Assembly (NCBI RefSeq): GCF_052046145.1
Contig: NZ_JBNGZR010000001.1
Span: 1,031,199-1,095,198 of the forward strand
Direction of reading: 5' to 3'
Origin: Candidatus Pelagibacter sp.
GTDB lineage: Bacteria > Pseudomonadota > Alphaproteobacteria > Pelagibacterales > Pelagibacteraceae
DNA: 64,000 nt
Under the pieces are notes generated by a model, which saw only the letters and a program-made list of their open reading frames with translations, ran no database searches and had not been told where the DNA came from. Position 1 is the first letter of the stretch. Every line of letters starts with the position of its first letter. Position numbers and translations under genes: made by a program. This document shows, one piece after another, positions 5,174-62,143 of the stretch.

Positions 5174-7625
<2,452 letters not shown>

Positions 7626-27692: not shown

Positions 27693-28886
27693 TTAAGCAG
27701 GATTTGGACATTCTATTACTCTGCCCATAGAATCTCTCTCTCCACATTTTTTAGGTTGTTTCTTATAACCCAATGGTAAATATATTAAACTATGATAGTC
27801 GTAATTTCTTTCAACAGAATGAGCAGTAATAATTCTGTTATTATTAAAATCAATCACTACTTGTTGTCCGTAAGCACCATCCATCATTAAAATAGGTCTG
27901 TCTTCTAATCCGATTGGGTCAAAGTGAAACTGACCACCGTAAGTTTGTGCTGATCTATGATTGCCTTTATATATACTATACTCACCATGTTGTTTATCAA
28001 CTCTATTTTCATACATTGTTTTTAAATACTTACCAACGCAAGTATCATTGTTCCAATGAATCATCATCATGTTAGCAATTCTTACATAATCATATCTATC
28101 AGCATAGAAAGAATATCTTCCGTATTCACCAGATTTTCTGTTACCAGTTTTATTAGCATATAAAGTTTTATGAAAATAAACTCTTTTAGCAACTTTAGCG
28201 TCTTCTACAAATATCTTATGTAATAACTTGTTCCAGTTATCACCAGTTTTGTAAATAACATAGTTCATAATAACATTGGTTGTCATGGCACTATAGTTAT
28301 AATAAGTACCAGGTTCTAAACCATCAACATTTTTAAAGTATTTCTTCATAACTTTTTTGATAGGTATAGTATTAACATTAGGACCTTTACCTTTGATAGG
28401 GTTGTCCCATGCGTAAATTCTTTGTCCTACTATTTTATCATCACCTGCCTGCATATTAAGTAAGTTAATTAATTTTTGATTTTCATATAAAGTACCTTCA
28501 ACCGTTGGGTAATCTATTCTGTCATAAACAGTATGATTAATATAACCACCACACATTGCATAACCTGTAACTAAAGATACCAAAGACTTACCTATGGAAT
28601 GCGAAGGATATGGTCCCCGATATTTACTTTTTCTATTTTCATCAACTAAAATCTTATTGTTTTCAAATAAGATGTAAGAAACTAAACCAGTATCTTTACG
28701 TGATATTTGTTTTTTAACTTTTACAGATAATTTATTAGTTTGTAAATCAAACTCAAAATCATAGGTTTCATTTTTTTTATCACCTATTTTGTATTTGTGG
28801 TGACAATTAAAACAATATTTCTCACCAGCGAATGTTACGCCGACCATTATAAAGAAAGAAAGGATAAAATAAATAATTCTAGTCAT
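27693..28886 (-). CDS. Secreted beta-lactamase-fold serine hydrolase (class C/NylB-like)
   Basis: Signal peptide ending VTFA; SIGK (SxxK), YNYSA, DGAYGQQVVIDF; CFNCH just after the signal peptide. Confidence 0.8.
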   Translation of the reverse strand: MTRIIYFILSFFIMVGVTFAGEKYCFNCHHKYKIGDKKNETYDFEFDLQTNKLSVKVKKQISRKDTGLVSYILFENNKILVDENRKSKYRGPYPSHSIGKSLVSLVTGYAMCGGYINHTVYDRIDYPTVEGTLYENQKLINLLNMQAGDDKIVGQRIYAWDNPIKGKGPNVNTIPIKKVMKKYFKNVDGLEPGTYYNYSAMTTNVIMNYVIYKTGDNWNKLLHKIFVEDAKVAKRVYFHKTLYANKTGNRKSGEYGRYSFYADRYDYVRIANMMMIHWNNDTCVGKYLKTMYENRVDKQHGEYSIYKGNHRSAQTYGGQFHFDPIGLEDRPILMMDGAYGQQVVIDFNNNRIITAHSVERNYDYHSLIYLPLGYKKQPKKCGERDSMGRVIECPNPA

Positions 28887-52526: not shown

Positions 52527-52556
52527 AAAAGGCCAGTTTTTTAACTGGCCTTTTTT
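52527..52556. terminator. Bidirectional rho-independent terminator
   Basis: AAAAGGCCAGTT-TTTT-AACTGGCC-T6 between convergent BMP and PRTase genes. Confidence 0.9.
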
Positions 52557-53079
52557 ATATTTGATGTTTTTTTTTAATTTCTTCAATTCTTAATTCTTCA
52601 TAAATTTCGAAGGGCTGCACAATCCAAGGATTATCAGGAAGTTTTTTTGCACAAAAATCTGGCTCAAATGTTGATTTCTTTTTTTTAAATAAAGTAGCAG
52701 TCTTGATATCCTCAATTTTATCCTTTATTGGTTCATATTTTTTTAACCAGTCTATACTTTTGTTAAAAGTTATTCCTGTATCAGATAAATCATCGCATAA
52801 AAGTATTTTACCACCCATATTAGGTGCGATAGAACTCATTTCCCTTGAGAACACAATATCACCCTGCTCATCCTCCACTCCTTTACCACTGTAAGACTCA
52901 ACTGCAAGATATGCACATTTTAATTTAAATATTCTGCTTAATACGTCTATCATTGGTGCTGCACCACGCATGATGCCAATCAGTATTGTTGGTTTATATC
53001 CACTTTCATCAATTTGGATTGCTAACTTTTCAACAGTCTGGTTGTACTCTTCCCAACTGACAATCATTTTTTCTGTCAT
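52555..53079 (-). CDS. gpt: Purine (xanthine/guanine) phosphoribosyltransferase
   Basis: GIMRGA, LLCDDLSDTGIT PRPP loop, WIVQPFE; purine cluster context. Confidence 0.75.
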   Translation of the reverse strand: MTEKMIVSWEEYNQTVEKLAIQIDESGYKPTILIGIMRGAAPMIDVLSRIFKLKCAYLAVESYSGKGVEDEQGDIVFSREMSSIAPNMGGKILLCDDLSDTGITFNKSIDWLKKYEPIKDKIEDIKTATLFKKKKSTFEPDFCAKKLPDNPWIVQPFEIYEELRIEEIKKKHQI

Positions 53080-53096
53080 AATTTTTTAATATCTAT

Positions 53097-54005
53097 TTAT
53101 TTAAATAATAAAACTAAAACTGCAAGAACGATAAGTGCAATTATTGAAGATATTAAGATATACAACCTATGAATGTTTCTTCCTCTTAAATTAAAATAAT
53201 GTCGTGCTACTCCAGTAATAACTGCTAATGCACATAATATTAACCAATTATACTGATGATAAACTAAGAAACTTGAGTGTCCAGAAAGCATTATAAACAA
53301 TACTAAAAAAGTGGAATAATTATTATGAATTGATCTCTGTTTAGCTGCAAGAGATAAACTCATATCAAATTTTTCACCTCTTTTACTACTGGTGATGATG
53401 TTCATTTGATTGGGTATAATAACTGTAAAAACATTACCAAACATATTGGTTCCTATAATTAGTCCAACACTTAAAATTGCAAATTTTGGTCCAAACAATT
53501 TTGTTAAACCAAAGGAAACAGCTGCTAATAAAATAATTGCTGTAGATATAAATAGTACATTATTTTCAATCAATTTTGATTTACACAATAGATCGTATAT
53601 AAACCAAAAAATAATTAATGATAAAAGCGAGATAATAATGGCGTAACTAGGAGGCATCAACAGAACACGTTTATCGACCATTAATACACCAGCGTTATAA
53701 TAATAAATTACAACTAAGAGCAACATTCCTGTTACAAAAGTTAGGTAACTTTGCCATTTAAAAATTACTAATCTATTTAAATAATCCTGTGGTGGTGAGG
53801 TTTTTAACCTTGAAAGTTTATAAAAAAAACCAGAATGCATCAGATATCCTTCTCCATCGACATCATCACTTGTTATATTTTTATTTAAATTATTGTCTAA
53901 GTAATTAAATAAAAAACTGTTACCTACCCATAATATTGCAAATACTACATGGCCCCATCTTAGAATAACTTCTAACCATTTAATTGTATAAGGTAAAAAT
54001 TCCAT
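53097..54005 (-). CDS. puuD: PuuD-type membrane urate oxidase, membrane domain only
   Basis: RWGHV..WVG.SF, FKWQSY.T..TG, IIPNQ, AKQRSIHNNY, RHYFN; ends at 302 aa with no CxxCH. Confidence 0.85.
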   Translation of the reverse strand: MEFLPYTIKWLEVILRWGHVVFAILWVGNSFLFNYLDNNLNKNITSDDVDGEGYLMHSGFFYKLSRLKTSPPQDYLNRLVIFKWQSYLTFVTGMLLLVVIYYYNAGVLMVDKRVLLMPPSYAIIISLLSLIIFWFIYDLLCKSKLIENNVLFISTAIILLAAVSFGLTKLFGPKFAILSVGLIIGTNMFGNVFTVIIPNQMNIITSSKRGEKFDMSLSLAAKQRSIHNNYSTFLVLFIMLSGHSSFLVYHQYNWLILCALAVITGVARHYFNLRGRNIHRLYILISSIIALIVLAVLVLLFK

Positions 54006-54475
54006 CAGTATTTTATTTTATCTACTTTTTTATCCCAAATTTCAAAAGCTTTTAAAGCTTCTTCTCTAAGCATTTGTACCATTTTAATTTTTCTATCATC
54101 AATTTTTTTTGGAATTTCTGTATAAATAAAAGAATCATCAAAATCTATATTTTTTGCATCTTCTCTAGTGTTAGCATAATATATTTTACCTAATCTTGAC
54201 CAATAAATTGCTGAAAGACACATTGGGCAAGGTTCACAAGATGTATAAATCTCGCATCCAGATAGATCAAAAGTATTTAAATTTTTACAAGCTTCTCGAA
54301 TTGCTACTATTTCTCCATGAGCAGTTGGATCATTTGTGGAAGTAACTTTGTTAGAGCCCTCTGCAATAATCTTTTGATCCTTAACTATAACACTTCCAAA
54401 GGGACCTCCTATAGTATTCGCACTTTTTATTGAAAGTTCAATGGCTTTTGCCATAAATTTTTTTTTATCTTCCAT
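54005..54475 (-). CDS. guaD: Guanine deaminase, CDA-fold (B. subtilis GuaD type)
   Basis: GGPFGSVIV, NDPTAHGE, EPCPMCLSAIYW, FDDSFIY. Confidence 0.88.
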   Translation of the reverse strand: MEDKKKFMAKAIELSIKSANTIGGPFGSVIVKDQKIIAEGSNKVTSTNDPTAHGEIVAIREACKNLNTFDLSGCEIYTSCEPCPMCLSAIYWSRLGKIYYANTREDAKNIDFDDSFIYTEIPKKIDDRKIKMVQMLREEALKAFEIWDKKVDKIKY

Positions 54476-56780
54476 TTTTTTTTTTTATTTTATTTTTAAT
54501 TTTGTTAATACTCATTAAAATTCTTTCAGGTGTTGCTGGCGCATTAAGTTCTGGTACAAACTGATAATTTCCAACTGAAGCAACTGCATCTTTAATTGCA
54601 TAAAAAACACTCATAGCTAACATTAGAGGAGGTTCGCCTGTTGTCTTTGCTTTATTAACAACTTTTTCTTTATTTATTCCATCTTTAAAAATTTCTACAT
54701 TAAATTTTTTTGGAATATCACTTACAGCAGGAATTTTATACGTTGATGGAGAGAAAGTTGTAATTTGACCATTTGATTTCCAATTTAGTTCTTCAATAGT
54801 TAACCAACCTTGTCCTTGAACAAAACCCCCTTCGATCTGACCTAATTCAAGTGCAGGATTTATTGGTTTTCCTGCATCATGCAAAATATCAACTCTTTCT
54901 AGGATATTTTCACCTGTTAGCGTATCTATAGTTACTTCTGAAACAGCTGCACCATAACAAAAATAATAAAATGGTCTTCCTCTAAATTTTTTTTTATCAA
55001 AGTTTATTTTTGGCGTTGAATAAAAACCTGAGGATGAAAGAGAAATTCTATTTAAATATGCTTCTTGGATAATACTTTTAAATTCAAATTGTCTGTTTCC
55101 AAATATTATATATTGATCCTTATAAATTGCTTCTTGATTGTAAATCTTATATTTTTTTTTAATAAATTTTTCTAAATTTAATTTAATTTTTGCTACTGCA
55201 TTTAATGCTGCAGCACCATTAAGGTCTGTGGTTGAAGATGCAGCGCTAGCTGAAGTATTTGGTACCTTAGCTGTATTTGTTGATGAAATATGTACTAAAT
55301 TATATGGTAATCCCAAGGAATTGGCCACTAGTTGAGCTATTTTTGTATGAGTCCCTTGACCCATTTCTATACCACCATGGTTCAAGTACACACTTCCATC
55401 TGTATAAATATGCACTAAAGCACCAGCTTGATTTAAATGAATTGTTGTAAATGAAATCCCAAATTTTACTGGTGTAATAGCTATACCCTTCTTTTTAAAT
55501 TTATTTTTTTCATTGAATTTTTTTATCTCTGAATATCTTTTCTTATAATTAGATTTATTTTCTAAATTTTTAAATATTTCATTAATCACATTGTCTTCAA
55601 TAGTCATTCCATAGTGAGTTATATTTTTTTTATCTTTTTGATAAAAATTTTTCTTTCGAACTTGAATAGGATCTATTTTTAAATACCTTGAAATATTATC
55701 AATAACATTTTCTATAGCCATCATTCCTTGATTTCCACCAAAGCCTCTAAATGCAGTTGAAGTTGGAATATTTGTCTTGCATAAATTATTTGTTACCTCG
55801 ATATCTGATATGTAATACGCATTGTCTATATGAAGAAGAGCTCTTTCATTTATTGCTGCTGATAAATCAGGCGACATTCCACAATTTGATGATAAGTTAA
55901 TTTTTAATCCTTCAATAATTCCTTCATCATTAAATCCAACTTCGTATTCAGATAAAAATTCATGCCTTTTACCAGTCAAAATTATATCATCATCTCTATC
56001 TAGTCTTAATTTCACAGGCTGACCTGTTTTTTTTGCCAACAACGCACAAATACATGCAGTCATAAAATTTGTCTCTTTCCCTCCAAATCCACCTCCAATT
56101 CTTCTTACTTCAACATTTATAGAATTACTTTTCTGATTAAACATTTTTGCAATTAATTGTTGTGTCTCAGAAGGATGTTGTGTTGAACTGTAAACTAAAA
56201 AATTATCATCTTCTTTAGGTATAACAAACGCTGCCTGACCCTCTAAATAAAAGTGTTCTTGACTTCCGGTTGTAAAGTTTCCTTTCAAATTATATTTTGA
56301 ATTTTTAATTTTCTTAGAAGGGTTTCCTTTTTTAATTTTTCTAGGCTTAAATAAAAATTGTTTTTTATTTAAAGCATCTTTTATTGTGATAACTGGTTTT
56401 AAATCTTTATAAGTGATTTTTGCCTTTAATACTGCTTTTCTTGCAAGTTCAGTAGTTGTGGCGGCTACAGCGAACAAAGGTTGACCAAAAAACTCAACTT
56501 TTTTATCTGGAAATATTGGATCACCATCAAAAACAGGGCCTACATCGTTCCTTCCTGAGATATCACTTTGAGTGACTACTGATATCACCCCTTCACTTTT
56601 TTTTACATCGCTTAAGTCTATTTTTTTGATTATTGCATGAGCTTTTTTACTTAAACCAATAGCACCATAAATTGTATTTTTTGGTTCATTAATGTCGTCA
56701 GTGTATTCAGCGTATCCACTTACATGCTTATAAGCACTATCATGTGGTCTTACATCATTAATATAGTTCTCTTTGCTCAT
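54465..56780 (-). CDS. xdhB: Xanthine dehydrogenase molybdopterin subunit
   Basis: QEHFYLEGQ, GGGFGGKE, AFRGFGG.QG, GQIEGGFVQG, GEPP. Confidence 0.96.
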   Translation of the reverse strand: MSKENYINDVRPHDSAYKHVSGYAEYTDDINEPKNTIYGAIGLSKKAHAIIKKIDLSDVKKSEGVISVVTQSDISGRNDVGPVFDGDPIFPDKKVEFFGQPLFAVAATTTELARKAVLKAKITYKDLKPVITIKDALNKKQFLFKPRKIKKGNPSKKIKNSKYNLKGNFTTGSQEHFYLEGQAAFVIPKEDDNFLVYSSTQHPSETQQLIAKMFNQKSNSINVEVRRIGGGFGGKETNFMTACICALLAKKTGQPVKLRLDRDDDIILTGKRHEFLSEYEVGFNDEGIIEGLKINLSSNCGMSPDLSAAINERALLHIDNAYYISDIEVTNNLCKTNIPTSTAFRGFGGNQGMMAIENVIDNISRYLKIDPIQVRKKNFYQKDKKNITHYGMTIEDNVINEIFKNLENKSNYKKRYSEIKKFNEKNKFKKKGIAITPVKFGISFTTIHLNQAGALVHIYTDGSVYLNHGGIEMGQGTHTKIAQLVANSLGLPYNLVHISSTNTAKVPNTSASAASSTTDLNGAAALNAVAKIKLNLEKFIKKKYKIYNQEAIYKDQYIIFGNRQFEFKSIIQEAYLNRISLSSSGFYSTPKINFDKKKFRGRPFYYFCYGAAVSEVTIDTLTGENILERVDILHDAGKPINPALELGQIEGGFVQGQGWLTIEELNWKSNGQITTFSPSTYKIPAVSDIPKKFNVEIFKDGINKEKVVNKAKTTGEPPLMLAMSVFYAIKDAVASVGNYQFVPELNAPATPERILMSINKIKNKIKKKNGR

Positions 56781-58217
56781 TTAATTAACTCTCGTTAGCT
56801 TATTAGAATGTATTTCTACGAAACATTTCATCAATAAATTTTTTGCTATCTCTAGTCTATATTCTTTACTTGCTCTCATATCCCCTATAGGACTTAGGTC
56901 TTTATCAAGATAATTTTTGGCTTGATTAAAAGTACTTAAATTAAGAGGTTTATTCTTAAGAATTTTCTCACAGGCTTTAGCTCTTTTTGGTACAGCTGCC
57001 ATACCTCCAAAAGCAATAAAAACCTCTTTAATTTTATTTTTATCAATTTCAAAATTAAAAGATCCACAAACAGATGAAATATCATCATCAAATCTTTTTG
57101 ATATTTTAAATGCTTTAAAAATATTTTTCTTAAATAATGGTATTTTTATTGAGTGAATAAATTCATTCTTTTTTAATTTAGTTTTTCTATAATCAAGGAA
57201 AAAATTGTTTATAGGAATAACTTTTCTTTGATTGAAGCTTTCAATTAAAATTTCTGCATTTAAAGATAACAAAATTGGTAATGTATCACCTATCGGAGAT
57301 GCTGTTGCAATGTTACCACCTATAGTTCCTACATTTCGAATTTGAACAGAACCATATCTTTTAAGAACTAAATAAAAATCTGGATAATGTTTTTTAATTT
57401 CTTTTTCAAATTTTATTAAAGGTGTAGAGGCGCCAACCTCAAGGTAATTTTTATTTACTTTTATAAAGTCTAATTCTTTTATTTCTTTTAAATCAATTAT
57501 AAAAGGAATTTCTTTTCTTTCTTTTGTAACTTTTAAAGATAAGTCTGTTCCACCTGCAAGAAAACTAAAATTTGAGTATTTTTTAATTATATTTTTTAAA
57601 TCCTTAATATTCTTTGGTGAAAAATAAATTTTATCATCTTTTTTAATATAAATATTTTTTGGTTTAATTTTTTTTAATAATTGAATAACTTTATTATTAT
57701 TTTTACTAAATTGATCATTCCTGTTTTTCTTGTCTAAACTTTTTGCAGCATCTAATATAGGTCTATATCCAGTGCAACGACATAAATTACCTGATATAGA
57801 ATCTGTTATTAATTCATTATTAAGATTTTTGTTATTTTTAAACATTGAAAATAAAGCCATAACAAATCCTGGTGTACAGAAACCGCATTGGGAACCATGA
57901 AATTTTACCATCGCATCTTGTACAGGGTGAAGTTTGCCATCTTTGGAAACCAAATCTTCTACAATTAAAAGTTGTTTACCATTTAATGATGGAACAAATG
58001 AAATACAGGAATTAATTGCTTTATATATAATCTTATTATCGACTAATTCACCTAAAACAATTGTACACGCGCCACAACCACCCTCTGAACATCCTTCTTT
58101 GGTTCCAGTCTTTTTTAATTCGGTTCTAATATAATTAAGTATGGTTTGATTTGGATCAGGATTATTGATTACTATAAGTTTATCATTTAATAGAAATTTA
58201 ACAGAGCTCGATATCAC
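56781..58217 (-). CDS. xdhA: Xanthine dehydrogenase 2Fe-2S/FAD subunit (GTG start)
   Basis: GCSEGGCGAC, QCGFCTPG, CRCTGY, AGGTD, GGNIATASPIGD, KISKRFDDDIS. Confidence 0.96.
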   Translation of the reverse strand: MISSSVKFLLNDKLIVINNPDPNQTILNYIRTELKKTGTKEGCSEGGCGACTIVLGELVDNKIIYKAINSCISFVPSLNGKQLLIVEDLVSKDGKLHPVQDAMVKFHGSQCGFCTPGFVMALFSMFKNNKNLNNELITDSISGNLCRCTGYRPILDAAKSLDKKNRNDQFSKNNNKVIQLLKKIKPKNIYIKKDDKIYFSPKNIKDLKNIIKKYSNFSFLAGGTDLSLKVTKERKEIPFIIDLKEIKELDFIKVNKNYLEVGASTPLIKFEKEIKKHYPDFYLVLKRYGSVQIRNVGTIGGNIATASPIGDTLPILLSLNAEILIESFNQRKVIPINNFFLDYRKTKLKKNEFIHSIKIPLFKKNIFKAFKISKRFDDDISSVCGSFNFEIDKNKIKEVFIAFGGMAAVPKRAKACEKILKNKPLNLSTFNQAKNYLDKDLSPIGDMRASKEYRLEIAKNLLMKCFVEIHSNKLTRVN

Positions 58218-58568
58218 TTAACTACCTCTATAAGTAGAATAACTCCAAGGTGAAACAAGTAAAGGAACATGATAGTGCTGTGAGGGATCTGAAATACCAA
58301 ATCTGATAATAACATCATCCAGGAATGGAACATCGCTAGCTGCAGATGTATTTTTAAAATAATCACCAATATGAAAAACTAATTCATATTTACCCTTAAT
58401 AAAAATATCGCCCTCAGCTAATGGTGAATTAGCTCTACCATCGTCATTGAGTTTTGTTGACGTTAATTTTTTTCGTTCTGAATTATTAATATAAAACAAC
58501 TCAACTAGGATACCATTGCCAGGTTTACCAGAATACACATCTAAAACATGAGTTGTGAGCTTTGTCAT
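58218..58568 (-). CDS. uraH: 5-hydroxyisourate hydrolase
   Basis: LTTHVLD, HYHVPLL, C-terminal YRGS. Confidence 0.96.
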   Translation of the reverse strand: MTKLTTHVLDVYSGKPGNGILVELFYINNSERKKLTSTKLNDDGRANSPLAEGDIFIKGKYELVFHIGDYFKNTSAASDVPFLDDVIIRFGISDPSQHYHVPLLVSPWSYSTYRGS

Positions 58569-58616
58569 AAAATTATAATATCATTTAGTTTTAAACTTAA
58601 ATTATTTTAAAGTTAT

Positions 58617-59114
58617 ATGAGAACAATAGATAACATTAACGATCTTAACAAGTCTGATTTTTTGTCTTTATTTGGTAATGTTTTTGAAAAAACTGAGTCA
58701 GTTGCAGTGGAAGCATTTGAGTCAAAACCATTTAAAAACTTCGAAGATATTATGTTTAAAATGCTTGATATTTATGAAAATTACGAAAAGAATAAAATTT
58801 TAGAGATTTTAAATGCTCATCCTGAGCTTGCTGTAGCAAAAAAAATGACCTCCGAATCTATATCAGAACAAGCTTCTGCAAAATTAAACCAATGTTCTAA
58901 TGATGAATATGAAGAATTTAAAAAATTAAATTCAGAATATAAAAAAAAGTTTAATTTTCCTTTTATAATTGCCGTAAAAGGTAAAGATAAAAATGAAATT
59001 TTGAATAATTTTAGACAAAGAATACAAAGTGATGTAGAAAGTGAATTCCTTGAAGCAAAAAAACAAGTAAAAAAAATCGCAACCTTTCGTTTGAATGAAA
59101 TAAATAAAAAATGA
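58617..59114 (+). CDS. uraD: OHCU decarboxylase
   Basis: VFEKT, AHPEL, SISEQ, YKKKFNFPFIIAV, QVKKIATFRL. Confidence 0.92.
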   Translation: MRTIDNINDLNKSDFLSLFGNVFEKTESVAVEAFESKPFKNFEDIMFKMLDIYENYEKNKILEILNAHPELAVAKKMTSESISEQASAKLNQCSNDEYEEFKKLNSEYKKKFNFPFIIAVKGKDKNEILNNFRQRIQSDVESEFLEAKKQVKKIATFRLNEINKK

Positions 59115-60097
59115 AAAAATTTATAAGTGCAAAAATGATTAACTTAGCGGATCCAAGAATTGGATCTAAAGTAATTTTTAAGACTGACGATTTTTTTGCA
59201 GCTGCTCACAGAATATTAAATATTAAAACTCCAGTTTTTAAAGATGGACTATTTGACAAACATGGTAAATGGATGGATGGATGGGAAACAAGAAGAAGAA
59301 GATCAAAAGGTTTTGATTATTTAATTTTAAAACTTGGTAAACCTGGAAAGATATTTGATATAGACATTGACACAACACATTTCAATGGAAATCAGCCCAC
59401 ACATGCTTCGTTAGAGGGTTGCTTAAGTAAAACAAAGCCTAATAAGAAAACTAAATGGATTTCTTTACTGAGCAAAAAAAAACTTGGGCCAAGCCGAAAC
59501 CATAGCTTCAAATCAAACAACAAATCTGTTTTTAATTATATAAGACTAAATATTTTTCCAGATGGTGGAGTTGCAAGGTTAAGGCTTTATGGAAAAATTG
59601 AAATGGAGAAAAACTTTTTAAATAACAAAACTATTAACCTTACATCTGTTTTAAATGGCGCTTCAATTATTGGTTGTAATAATGAACATTTTGGCAGAGC
59701 TGAAAATATCATAGCACCTGGTAAAGGAAAAAATATGGGAGATGGTTGGGAAACAAGAAGAAGTAGAGGAAAAAACTTTGATTGGCTTATAATAAAATTT
59801 GGAAAACCAGGATTAATAAAAAAGCTAGAGATAGATACCCATCATTTTAAAGGAAACTATCCCGATAGTTGTTCAATTCAAACTGCAAGCATTTCAAAAA
59901 AACTGTCCAATAAATCAATTGTCAATAATTCAAAAAATTGGAAGTTTATTATAAATAAGTCAAAACTGTCAGCTCACAAGAAACATATTTTTAAAAAATT
60001 CTTAATTAAGAGAAGTAAGGAAAATTATCTTAAAATAAATATCTATCCAGACGGTGGAATTTCAAGAATAAGGGCATTTGGAAATTTTGTGAGATGA
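59111..60097 (+). CDS. alc: Allantoicase
   Basis: Two repeats with DGWETRR, IDT.HF.GN, PDGG..R.R. Confidence 0.95.
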   Translation: MKKFISAKMINLADPRIGSKVIFKTDDFFAAAHRILNIKTPVFKDGLFDKHGKWMDGWETRRRRSKGFDYLILKLGKPGKIFDIDIDTTHFNGNQPTHASLEGCLSKTKPNKKTKWISLLSKKKLGPSRNHSFKSNNKSVFNYIRLNIFPDGGVARLRLYGKIEMEKNFLNNKTINLTSVLNGASIIGCNNEHFGRAENIIAPGKGKNMGDGWETRRSRGKNFDWLIIKFGKPGLIKKLEIDTHHFKGNYPDSCSIQTASISKKLSNKSIVNNSKNWKFIINKSKLSAHKKHIFKKFLIKRSKENYLKINIYPDGGISRIRAFGNFVR

Positions 60098-60585
60098 AAA
60101 TAATAAAAGCAAAAAAAATTACTAAAAAAAATTTTTCTAAATTTGGTCAATTAATAGATACGTCAAAAAAAAATCCTATAAATATTAATGATGGGTATGC
60201 AAAAAGATTTGATAATTTAATTAACGTAGATGCATCTAAAAACAAAGGGAAAGCAATTGTTAGTATTTTTAAAGCAAAAAAAAGAAGGTTTCCTATGAAA
60301 ATTGACATGATGGAAAAACATCCTTTAGGAAGCCAAGCCTTTATACCAATGGAAGATACAAAATTTTTAGTATTTGTAGCACCAAAAGGAGATAAACCAG
60401 ATGTAAATAAAATCCAATCCTTTTTAGTCCCAAAACAAACTGGAGTTAATTACAATGCTGGTATTTGGCACTTTCCGTTGATTTCTATGAAAAATATGAA
60501 TTTTCTAATTGTTGATAGAAAAGGAAAAGGAAACAATCTTGTTATTTATAAATTTAAAAAAGATAAAATTATTTTGAAAAAATGA
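60094..60585 (+). CDS. allA: Ureidoglycolate lyase
   Basis: FSKFG, MEKHPLGSQAFIP, GVNYNAGIWHFP, VDRKG. Confidence 0.92.
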   Translation: MKIIKAKKITKKNFSKFGQLIDTSKKNPININDGYAKRFDNLINVDASKNKGKAIVSIFKAKKRRFPMKIDMMEKHPLGSQAFIPMEDTKFLVFVAPKGDKPDVNKIQSFLVPKQTGVNYNAGIWHFPLISMKNMNFLIVDRKGKGNNLVIYKFKKDKIILKK

Positions 60586-61481
60586 AAAAAAAATACCCAA
60601 GAGATTTAGTGGGATATGGTTCCAAAAAAGTTAAGGTAAAGTGGCCTGGTAATGCTAAGTTAGCTTTGCAATTTGTACTTAATTACGAGGAGGGAGCAGA
60701 AAATTGTACTCTTCATGGTGATAAAACTTCAGAAGTATTTTTATCAGAAATTATAGGAGCAAAACCAATTAAAGGTCGACACTTAAATATGGAATCAATT
60801 TATGAATATGGATCAAGAAGAGGGTTTTGGAGAATTCATGATCTATTTAATAAAAAGAAAATTCCACTTACTATTTTTGGAGTTGGTATGGCATTGGAGA
60901 GAAATAAAGAAGTTTGTTCTGCTATAAAAAAAGCAAAGTATGAAGTTGCTTGTCATGGGTGGAGATGGATTGATTATCAAAATGTATCAAAGAAAAAAGA
61001 AAAGAATGATATGAAACTTGCAGTCAAATCTATAAAAAAGATTTTTGGCTATCAACCTGCTGGTTGGTACACTGGTAGGTGTAGTACAAATACTTTAGAT
61101 TTAGTAATCGAAAATGGTGATTTTTTATACTGTAGCGACACATATAGTGATGATCTTCCTTATTGGATAAAAAAAGGTAGTAAAAAACAACTCATGGTTC
61201 CTTATACACTCGATAACAATGATATGAGATTTGCAACTAATCAAGGATTTAATTCGGGTGAACAATTTTATAATTATTTAAAAGATAGTTTCGATGCCCT
61301 TTATGAGGAAGGAAAAACTTCACCAAAGATGATGTCGGTTGGCTTACATTGTAGATTAATTGGAAGACCTGGTAGAATACAGTCTCTTAAAAAATTTTTA
61401 AATTACATTACAAAATTTAAGGATATTTGGATCTGCAAAAGAGTAGATATAGCTAAACATTGGATAAAAAATTACAGTTAA
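60582..61481 (+). CDS. puuE: Allantoinase PuuE (polysaccharide deacetylase fold)
   Basis: YPRDLVGY, NYEEGAE, YEYGSR, HGWRW, MSVGLHCR. Confidence 0.95.
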   Translation: MKKKYPRDLVGYGSKKVKVKWPGNAKLALQFVLNYEEGAENCTLHGDKTSEVFLSEIIGAKPIKGRHLNMESIYEYGSRRGFWRIHDLFNKKKIPLTIFGVGMALERNKEVCSAIKKAKYEVACHGWRWIDYQNVSKKKEKNDMKLAVKSIKKIFGYQPAGWYTGRCSTNTLDLVIENGDFLYCSDTYSDDLPYWIKKGSKKQLMVPYTLDNNDMRFATNQGFNSGEQFYNYLKDSFDALYEEGKTSPKMMSVGLHCRLIGRPGRIQSLKKFLNYITKFKDIWICKRVDIAKHWIKNYS

Positions 61482-61488
61482 ATTTTTA

Positions 61489-61812
61489 TTATTGTTCAGC
61501 AGCTATAGAAGTATAGTGAGCAACTGCTTCTATTTCATCATCAGTTAATATACCCTCCATCGCAGGCATTACTCCTATACCGTTTCTAACTGCCATTATA
61601 ATTCTTTGAATATCGGGTCTAATTTCATTTAAATTTGGACCAACCATTGCGTTCGATCCAGCATCTGAGAGCATATGGCATGCTGCACAATTTCCAGCCC
61701 CCAGAAAAACTTCTTTTCCCTTATTAAACAATTCATCGGCATTAACCTGGGTTAATGATGAAAATATCAAAAATAATAATGTACAAAAGAAATTTAAAAA
61801 TAATTTTTTCAC
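61489..61812 (-). CDS. Monoheme class I c-type cytochrome with signal peptide
   Basis: CAACH, GPNL, GVMPAM axial Met. Confidence 0.9.
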   Translation of the reverse strand: MKKLFLNFFCTLLFLIFSSLTQVNADELFNKGKEVFLGAGNCAACHMLSDAGSNAMVGPNLNEIRPDIQRIIMAVRNGIGVMPAMEGILTDDEIEAVAHYTSIAAEQ

Positions 61813-61855: not shown

Positions 61856-62143
61856 ATGAAAGCTTATTGGGTTGCAAATTATACAGAAATAAAAGACGAC
61901 GAAAGACTTAAAAAATATGCCGTTAAAGCTAAAGAAGCGGTTGAAAAATATTCTGGAAAAATAATAGCGAGAAGTGCAAATAATATAACTTTAGAAGGTA
62001 GGGAAATGGTTAGAGTAGCACTTGCAGAATTTCCAGATATTGAAACAGCAAAAAATTGTTACAATTCCAAAGAGTATGTTGAAGCTAGAAAACATTTGGA
62101 AAATAATGCTACTCGAGAACATATAATTTTTGAGGGAATGTAA
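61856..62143 (+). CDS. DUF1330 family protein
   Basis: AYWVA, EFPDIETAKNCYNSKEY; AAGGAG Shine-Dalgarno. Confidence 0.85.
   Translation: MKAYWVANYTEIKDDERLKKYAVKAKEAVEKYSGKIIARSANNITLEGREMVRVALAEFPDIETAKNCYNSKEYVEARKHLENNATREHIIFEGM

Follow-up and report, generated by a model that had tools for sequence, protein, structure and literature searches.

A urate oxidase without its cytochrome c domain and a free cytochrome c in the purine island of Pelagibacteraceae

Where do the electrons of urate go when the membrane protein that oxidizes it carries no haem domain of its own? SAR11 is the most abundant heterotroph of the ocean, and this question is raised by a purine-degradation island in the genome of a bacterium of that group, Candidatus Pelagibacter sp. 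(1.33 Mb, a single contig, about 29% GC, 99.9% complete). The island lies in the window, that is, the whole stretch of 64,000 nucleotides that was analysed, and it extends from a gene for the membrane urate oxidase PuuD to a gene for a small exported cytochrome c. It is fairly probable that these two proteins act as a two-part urate:cytochrome c oxidoreductase, in which the island cytochrome would take the electrons of PuuD in trans and pass them on to the aa3-type cytochrome c oxidase.

Proteobacteria oxidize urate mainly by means of PuuD. This protein was defined by Doniselli et al. (2015, PMC4562309), who proposed a Nout-Cout topology, the oxidation of urate on the cytoplasmic side and a haem domain in the periplasm, and who described the cytochrome domain as an invariant part of every full-length DUF989 protein. 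To infer that this domain is essential, they relied on its invariance and on an S. meliloti ccmC mutant rather than on removing it. An earlier note on this DNA had taken the need of the cytochrome c for activity as established; it was right in so far as the need had been proposed, and it overstated its standing. In the literature on PuuD, DUF989 and COG3748, no description was found of a PuuD that lacks the cytochrome and is accompanied by a separate one. The SAR11 protein resembles the PuuD of Agrobacterium fabrum (Atu2314; PMC4562309) in its 8-helix Urate_ox_N (DUF989) domain, its invariant residues, its predicted Nout-Cout topology and its genetic context (xdh, uraH, uraD and puuE, with no H2O2-forming uricase in the genome). 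However, it has no C-terminal extension beyond helix 8, and the exported cytochrome c, which the island encodes separately, belongs to a different sequence type.

First of all, the shortness of PuuD is real. Residues 6–297 correspond to positions 2–293 of the 295 positions of the PF06181 (Urate_ox_N) profile, with a score of 287 bits; this domain (DUF989; COG3748) is the only one in the protein, which ends 5 residues beyond it. Neither a CxxCH motif nor a C-terminal haem c domain was found in the 302 aa, and the downstream gene, a purine phosphoribosyltransferase (PRT), begins at 53079, 17 nt beyond the PuuD stop codon. That is to say, the statement of the earlier note that there is no frameshifted remnant behind PuuD is borne out. 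Marine metagenomes hold thousands of variants of 302–303 aa, and therefore the short PuuD is not a sequencing artefact; these intact variants and the 17-nt gap together rule out a frameshift or pseudogene origin. In two samples of Pelagibacteraceae (251 and 301 genomes), every genome with a PuuD has the short form. In an alignment of 75 sequences that includes the SAR11 PuuD, H19, W26, Y137, N228 and H243 are invariant and H57 and H227 are near-invariant, and to judge from this conservation, the four histidines are candidate cofactor ligands. According to the positive-inside rule, the C-terminus is located at the periplasmic face, which agrees with the Nout-Cout model of Doniselli et al.

It might be supposed that the SAR11 PuuD is not a urate oxidase but an inactive relic, a transporter or a sensor, and that urate is oxidized non-enzymatically or by an unknown enzyme. 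In favour of this, the protein sits on a long branch, and of the full-length PF06181 matches in the samples it has the lowest score (286 bits, against about 390–470). Nevertheless, all the residues invariant in the family are kept, the thousands of variants are intact, and PuuD is present in every island with uraH and uraD, which would otherwise have no substrate. Profile matches confirm that uraH and uraD are intact in the window, as the earlier note had it, and so are allantoicase, ureidoglycolate lyase and puuE. Moreover, no PF01014 uricase (Uox) and no enzyme of the HpxO/HpyO type was found in the complete one-contig genome, where the PF01494 matches are only short Rossmann-motif ones; the absence of Uox, HpxO and HpyO from the window thus extends to the whole genome. 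Braakman et al. (2025, PMC11698098) likewise assign PuuD as the urate oxidase. This explanation is regarded as very improbable.

The second component, the 107-aa monohaem cytochrome c, begins with a signal peptide of the Sec type (MKKLF...TQVNA/DELF), and a single CAACH motif and a methionine ligand in GVMP follow; the protein matches PF13442 at 45.8 bits (cut-off 27) and also PF00034. Its gene adjoins puuE at the end of the cluster, as had been noticed from the letters alone; the two genes are convergent, the end of puuE being at 61481. The ratio of nonsynonymous to synonymous substitution (dN/dS) is 0.04 in the mature cytochrome and 0.48 in its signal peptide, so that the mature protein is under strong purifying selection. 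The signal peptide, the CxxCH motif (CAACH) and the Met ligand (GVMP) are kept in every copy. With an exported cytochrome and the end of PuuD on the periplasmic side, the location of the two fits a handover of electrons.

The boundaries of the island were obtained from ten genomes without PuuD. Their empty sites have the order permease–PRT–(glycosyltransferase)–DUF1330–alkA–eamA–msrA, with no cytochrome, and DUF1330 is missing at one of the ten. Therefore, the inserted block runs from PuuD through the cytochrome, and PRT and DUF1330 are its flanks. The cytochrome is retained in three layouts of this block, with 53–99% identity. The first has the full pathway and the DUF1330 flank (G000 type, as in the window); the second keeps the full pathway but differs in its right flank, a glycosyltransferase (G714 and G719), and its cytochrome is 53–64% identical; the third is short and covers only the steps from purine to allantoin, and its cytochrome adjoins uraD and not puuE (G238, G033, G249, G242 and G694). 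The allantoin branch (allantoicase, ureidoglycolate lyase and puuE) is absent from the short islands, the cytochrome still being kept, and the distance between PuuD and the cytochrome is about 5 kb there and about 7.5 kb in the window.

These layouts bear on the possibility that the cytochrome is a passenger, that is, a SorB-like gene which inserted at the island edge, is carried along through linkage and has no role in purine metabolism. Such an origin would be in keeping with its place at the very edge of the island, its separate convergent transcription and the fact that its closest SAR11 paralogues belong to a sulfite dehydrogenase. A passenger, however, would hardly have a dN/dS of 0.04 in its mature domain, nor would it persist while DUF1330, the glycosyltransferase and the allantoin genes come and go; in the short island of G138 the cytochrome is even internal, between uraD and xdhC. 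In addition, no SorA or other periplasmic dehydrogenase stands alongside, and the cytochrome has never been found without PuuD. A passenger is thus held to be improbable.

The distribution of the two genes was then counted in Pelagibacteraceae. PuuD was present in 51 of the genomes examined, two of which end at a contig break exactly where the cytochrome is expected, so that 49 were assessable. An island-type cytochrome, defined by at least 53% identity, occurs in 42 of these 49; the remaining 7 have a SorB-type homologue only, and none is without a homologue. Among the 213 genomes without PuuD, the island type was found in none, a SorB-type homologue alone in 25 and no homologue in 188 (Fisher p = 1e-34 on the family sample, a descriptive value that ignores shared ancestry and linkage). 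Where both are on the same contig, the island-type copy is located 5–8 kb from PuuD, and in four genomes a contig end breaks the island. In other words, a soluble cytochrome c of this family is never missing from an assessable genome with PuuD, and most other SAR11 genomes have none. The cytochrome is therefore not a core gene of strains lacking the purine genes; had it been one, this would, according to the earlier note, have spoken against the partnership.

The island contains no other membrane or periplasmic redox protein. Two other roles for the cytochrome were considered and rejected. As a partner of xanthine dehydrogenase or another enzyme of the island it is not suitable, because those enzymes are cytoplasmic, or are hydrolases and lyases; as a housekeeping carrier from bc1 to aa3 it does not fit the 188 of the 213 PuuD-less genomes in which no homologue was found, and a CycM-like cytochrome is present. 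The genome also encodes a cytochrome c'. Cytochrome c1, the membrane-anchored CycM-like cytochrome c and the maturation genes CcmC/CcmE/CcmF, together with the aa3 oxidase, should make the island cytochrome unnecessary for ordinary respiration. No motif of a cbb3 or bd oxidase was found in the genome.

On this basis, the following course of the reaction is proposed. The 8-helix core of PuuD would oxidize urate on the cytoplasmic side, and the 5-hydroxyisourate would be passed to UraH, which has no signal peptide and is therefore cytoplasmic, and then to UraD. The two electrons would traverse the membrane via PuuD and be accepted at the periplasmic face by the free 107-aa cytochrome c, which would replace the fused C-terminal domain and diffuse to the aa3 cytochrome c oxidase, the presumed final acceptor. 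Urate oxidation would in this way yield no H2O2 and would feed the last proton-pumping step of respiration. A two-component urate oxidoreductase feeding aa3 had been proposed in the earlier note; this part is the best-supported reading of co-occurrence, island membership and selection, while the history by fission and the obligatory pairing that went with it have not stood.

As for the history, PuuD in the window had been described as "split" from its cytochrome, and this does not agree with the relatives of either protein. A tree built from 94 database representatives places the SAR11 clade on a long branch, as sister to P0129, a fused PuuD of 406 aa (SH-like approximate likelihood ratio test, SH-aLRT, 99); since the sister is fused, the cytochrome domain of the SAR11 protein was lost secondarily. 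This nearest relative (P0129/P0397, fused, 406 aa) is encoded on a contig of the sister lineage (L124, 27.6% GC) with the order uraD-puuE-uraH-xdhA-xdhB-xdhC-PuuD(fused)-alkA-EamA and no free cytochrome c, and its xdh and puuE products are 63–69% identical to their counterparts in the window. This complementary pattern, a fused haem domain where no free cytochrome is encoded, also speaks for the partnership. Between the island cytochrome and the C-terminal domain of P0129, no similarity was seen (E = 1.6). A tree of the haem domains concurs: on one side of its longest branch (SH-aLRT 100) stands the canonical PuuD type, on the other the island cytochromes, together with SorB and the domains of the actinobacterial fusions. 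From these comparisons, the history is the loss of the ancestral domain followed by the recruitment of an unrelated type of cytochrome c, and not a fission. A fused PuuD ancestor would have lost its canonical haem domain, and a cytochrome of the PF13442 type, which is the type of SorB, would have joined the island.

The same two families do meet in one polypeptide elsewhere. Over its whole mature length, the island cytochrome is 45–46% identical to the C-terminal domains of the fused PuuDs P0185, P0197 and P0238, which contain a clear PF13442 domain. PF06181 joined to PF13442 is a frequent combination in Actinomycetota and other groups, with 46 examples among the 120 matches listed. One of them, P0281 from a metagenome-assembled genome (MAG) of Solirubrobacteraceae, belongs to a purine cluster, which also includes allantoinase, allantoate amidohydrolase and a gene that fuses uraD and uraH. 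What is a single protein in the actinobacterial PuuDs is two genes in SAR11, and therefore these fusions provide Rosetta-stone evidence for a functional link between PuuD and the cytochrome. DUF989 has thus become fused to at least two unrelated types of cytochrome c, with several lineages having none, and in SAR11 it would be paired in trans with the second type. Many of the "long PuuDs without CxxCH" among the database representatives were rejected as frameshifted reads with Arg-rich tails. Other architectures of DUF989, undescribed in 2015, were also observed: a C-terminal region of about 250 aa that ends in a CarboxypepD_reg-like domain (P0144, P0147, P0151, P0173 and P0225), a fusion with OHCU decarboxylase (P0266) and a tandem DUF989 (P0123 and P0125–P0127).

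Several observations weigh against the partnership of PuuD and the island cytochrome. The co-occurrence of adjacent genes is partly due to linkage, and genome counts are not phylogenetically independent. The cytochrome is a transcription unit of its own, always convergent with the adjacent purine gene. An operator shared by the cytochrome and the purine promoters was looked for and none was found; a promoter and terminator scan gave no informative signal in the AT-rich DNA, and the palindrome AACTTTAAAGTT upstream of the ABC operon was rejected as such an operator, not being enriched. A search of PDB folds with the AlphaFold2 model of the SAR11 PuuD (pLDDT 96) gave no match, the best E value being 0.12, and no hint of an electron route through PuuD. 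PF13442 is a very common type of cytochrome, so that 45% identity to the fused domains means compatibility rather than orthology. There are also seven genomes with PuuD and without the island cytochrome (G149, G171, G182, G700, G721, G002 and G013), the PuuD of G721 being itself truncated.

Short PuuDs of other lineages point in the same direction. Among Proteobacteria they are exceptional. In the class-level sample, about 85 full-length PuuDs have frames of at least 395 aa, except for this genome, G609 and one copy disrupted by an insertion sequence (IS); in the phylum-level sample, all other full-length PuuDs have at least 396 aa. The short alphaproteobacterial PuuD of G609 has no cytochrome nearby. 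A dozen short PuuDs of 261–312 aa, several of them without helix 8, are present in purine clusters of Acidobacteriota, Myxococcota and Bdellovibrionota, and among 80 PuuD loci of other phyla no recognisable cytochrome c was found within 8 kb of these short PuuDs. No independent lineage that combines a short PuuD with an adjacent free cytochrome c was found in those 80 loci or in the class and phylum samples. The alternative C-terminal architectures of DUF989 leave further room for a route independent of cytochrome. For these reasons, the physical passage of electrons out of PuuD into the cytochrome, and then to aa3, is inferred.

These facts would be accounted for if the short PuuD needed no cytochrome c, the DUF989 core passing its electrons to quinone or O2 and the cytochrome doing something else, for example scavenging the superoxide formed in urate oxidation, an idea raised by Doniselli et al. 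themselves, or serving as a general periplasmic carrier. Besides the cytochrome-less PuuDs in the purine clusters of other phyla, other C-termini (CarboxypepD_reg-like, the OHCU-decarboxylase fusion and the forms without the eighth helix) and the seven SAR11 islands without a cytochrome gene are consistent with it. The comparison with other phyla is nevertheless weak, because those organisms have large genomes with many soluble cytochromes c, in which absence from the cluster says little. This explanation also leaves aside why, in a streamlined genome, the cytochrome should be under strong purifying selection, be kept in 42 of 49 islands and in three layouts, and never occur outside the island, and why an otherwise rare SorB-type paralogue is present in all the PuuD-bearing genomes that lack the island copy. 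Such a cytochrome-independent PuuD, with either of the two roles for the cytochrome, is considered rather unlikely.

The seven exceptions lead to a wider form of the proposed oxidoreductase. Each of them carries a SorB-type paralogue 38–47% identical to the island cytochrome, and only about 12% of the genomes without PuuD carry one. SorB is the small monohaem subunit of SorAB, the sulfite:cytochrome c oxidoreductase. In the four genomes examined (G149, G171, G182 and G002), the SorB-type copy adjoins a Tat-exported molybdoenzyme of the SorA type (Oxidored_molyb + Mo-co_dimer), and therefore it is the SorB subunit of a sulfite dehydrogenase. Where the island copy is missing, this cytochrome probably substitutes for it. 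The pairing of PuuD with the island cytochrome is therefore not obligatory, as it had been presented. It is about an even chance that the system is modular, PuuD using whichever small PF13442 cytochrome c is present, the island copy or SorB, for a respiratory oxidation of urate.

SorB-like proteins are the nearest SAR11 paralogues of the island cytochrome (38–47% identity, PF13442), and both are proposed to be small periplasmic carriers that lead from one dedicated dehydrogenase towards cytochrome c oxidase. However, the island cytochrome has no SorA molybdoenzyme beside it and forms a group of its own outside the SorB clade of the tree, and its proposed donor is an integral membrane protein instead of a soluble molybdoenzyme.

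The purine operon of SAR11 is the subject of a paper in Sci Adv by Braakman et al. (2025, PMC11698098), who named PuuD as the urate oxidase and divided the pathway into energy-, carbon- and nitrogen-harvesting parts. It is the same island, with the same gene set and the same full and energy-harvesting (purine-to-allantoin) variants. The word "cytochrome" does not appear in the main text of that paper, and the energy yield counted there is the NADH of xanthine dehydrogenase only. If the two-part oxidoreductase holds, urate oxidation would be a respiratory, energy-conserving step in SAR11, and the electrons entering aa3 would be a second energy yield of the energy-harvesting module besides that NADH. 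The presence of a soluble cytochrome c would then decide whether the purine island can function, which may explain why the island is accompanied by such a protein, although most SAR11 genomes lack one. It would also be a naturally separated system for dissecting the redox chemistry of DUF989. A separate soluble cytochrome makes the PuuD system easier to study, as the parts can be expressed, purified and mixed. To our knowledge, no PuuD structure exists and the role of the cytochrome has never been directly tested. The genes of the island, its flanks and the oxidase subunits encoded in the window are listed in Table 1.

Table 1. Genes of the purine island, its flanks and the cytochrome c oxidase in the window (positions of the 64,000-nucleotide stretch)
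Feature	Position	Strand	Evidence and remarks
Purine phosphoribosyltransferase (PRT)	52555–53079	-	PF00156; left island flank, also present at empty sites
PuuD, membrane urate oxidase	53097–54005	-	PF06181; 302 aa, 8 predicted transmembrane helices
CDA-fold purine (guanine-type) deaminase	54005–54475	-	PF00383; kept in all island variants
xdhB, xanthine dehydrogenase large Mo subunit	54465–56780	-	Open reading frame and translation; L124 homologues with xanthine dehydrogenase Pfam domains
xdhA, xanthine dehydrogenase FAD/2Fe-2S subunit	56781–58217	-	Open reading frame and translation; L124 homologues with xanthine dehydrogenase Pfam domains
uraH, 5-hydroxyisourate hydrolase	58218–58568	-	PF00576; without signal peptide
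uraD, OHCU decarboxylase	58617–59114	+	PF09349
Allantoicase	59111–60097	+	PF03561
Ureidoglycolate lyase	60094–60585	+	PF04115
puuE, allantoinase	60582–61481	+	PF01522
Monohaem cytochrome c, 107 aa	61489–61812	-	PF13442/PF00034; signal peptide, CAACH, GVMP Met ligand
DUF1330 protein	61856–62143	+	PF07045; right island flank, at 9 of 10 empty sites
aa3-type cytochrome c oxidase subunit I	5174–6808	-	PF00115, 546 bits
aa3-type cytochrome c oxidase subunit II	6810–7625	-	PF00116, PF02790

Some variants of PuuD deserve mention. In G249 (C3, L018 3790–5139), PuuD and the downstream phosphoribosyltransferase form a single frame of 449 aa (PF06181 + PF00156), which may be a genuine fusion or the result of a single-base error of assembly. 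In a second genus of Pelagibacteraceae (G002, L025 8290–9132; G013, L032 5693–6535), PuuD has 280 aa and lacks helix 8, covering positions 3–275 of the 295 of the profile, and a DUF1330 gene is located between PRT and PuuD. Since Acidobacteriota and Myxococcota also have PuuDs of this kind, of 261–288 aa, the sole purpose of helix 8 may be to bring a C-terminal domain across the membrane. In the alphaproteobacterium G525 (C13, L030 8516–9106), puuD is apparently interrupted by an IS-like transposase gene, which separates the membrane domain from a remnant bearing CxxCH.

The island and its cytochrome vary in minor ways too. No xdhC lies between PuuD and the cytochrome c in the window island; in G138 (L017 13466–14481), XdhC is encoded by two genes (XdhC_CoxI and XdhC_C) straight after the island cytochrome. 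In G694 (C14, L125 7020–7286), the island cytochrome has an in-frame TAA in the region of the signal peptide, and a SorB-type copy is present elsewhere in this MAG; the stop may be a decay permitted by redundancy or an assembly error. The periplasmic sulfite dehydrogenase of the SorAB type is confined to a minority of SAR11 genomes, about 12% of the ones that lack PuuD, and is located next to genes of the molybdenum cofactor (moaA and others), as in G149 (L021 3809–5383) and also in L024, L026 and L028. Finally, the window encodes an exported protein of 397 aa (27693–28886) with CFNCH straight after its signal peptide, and it is the only other unexpected CxxCH protein of the genome.

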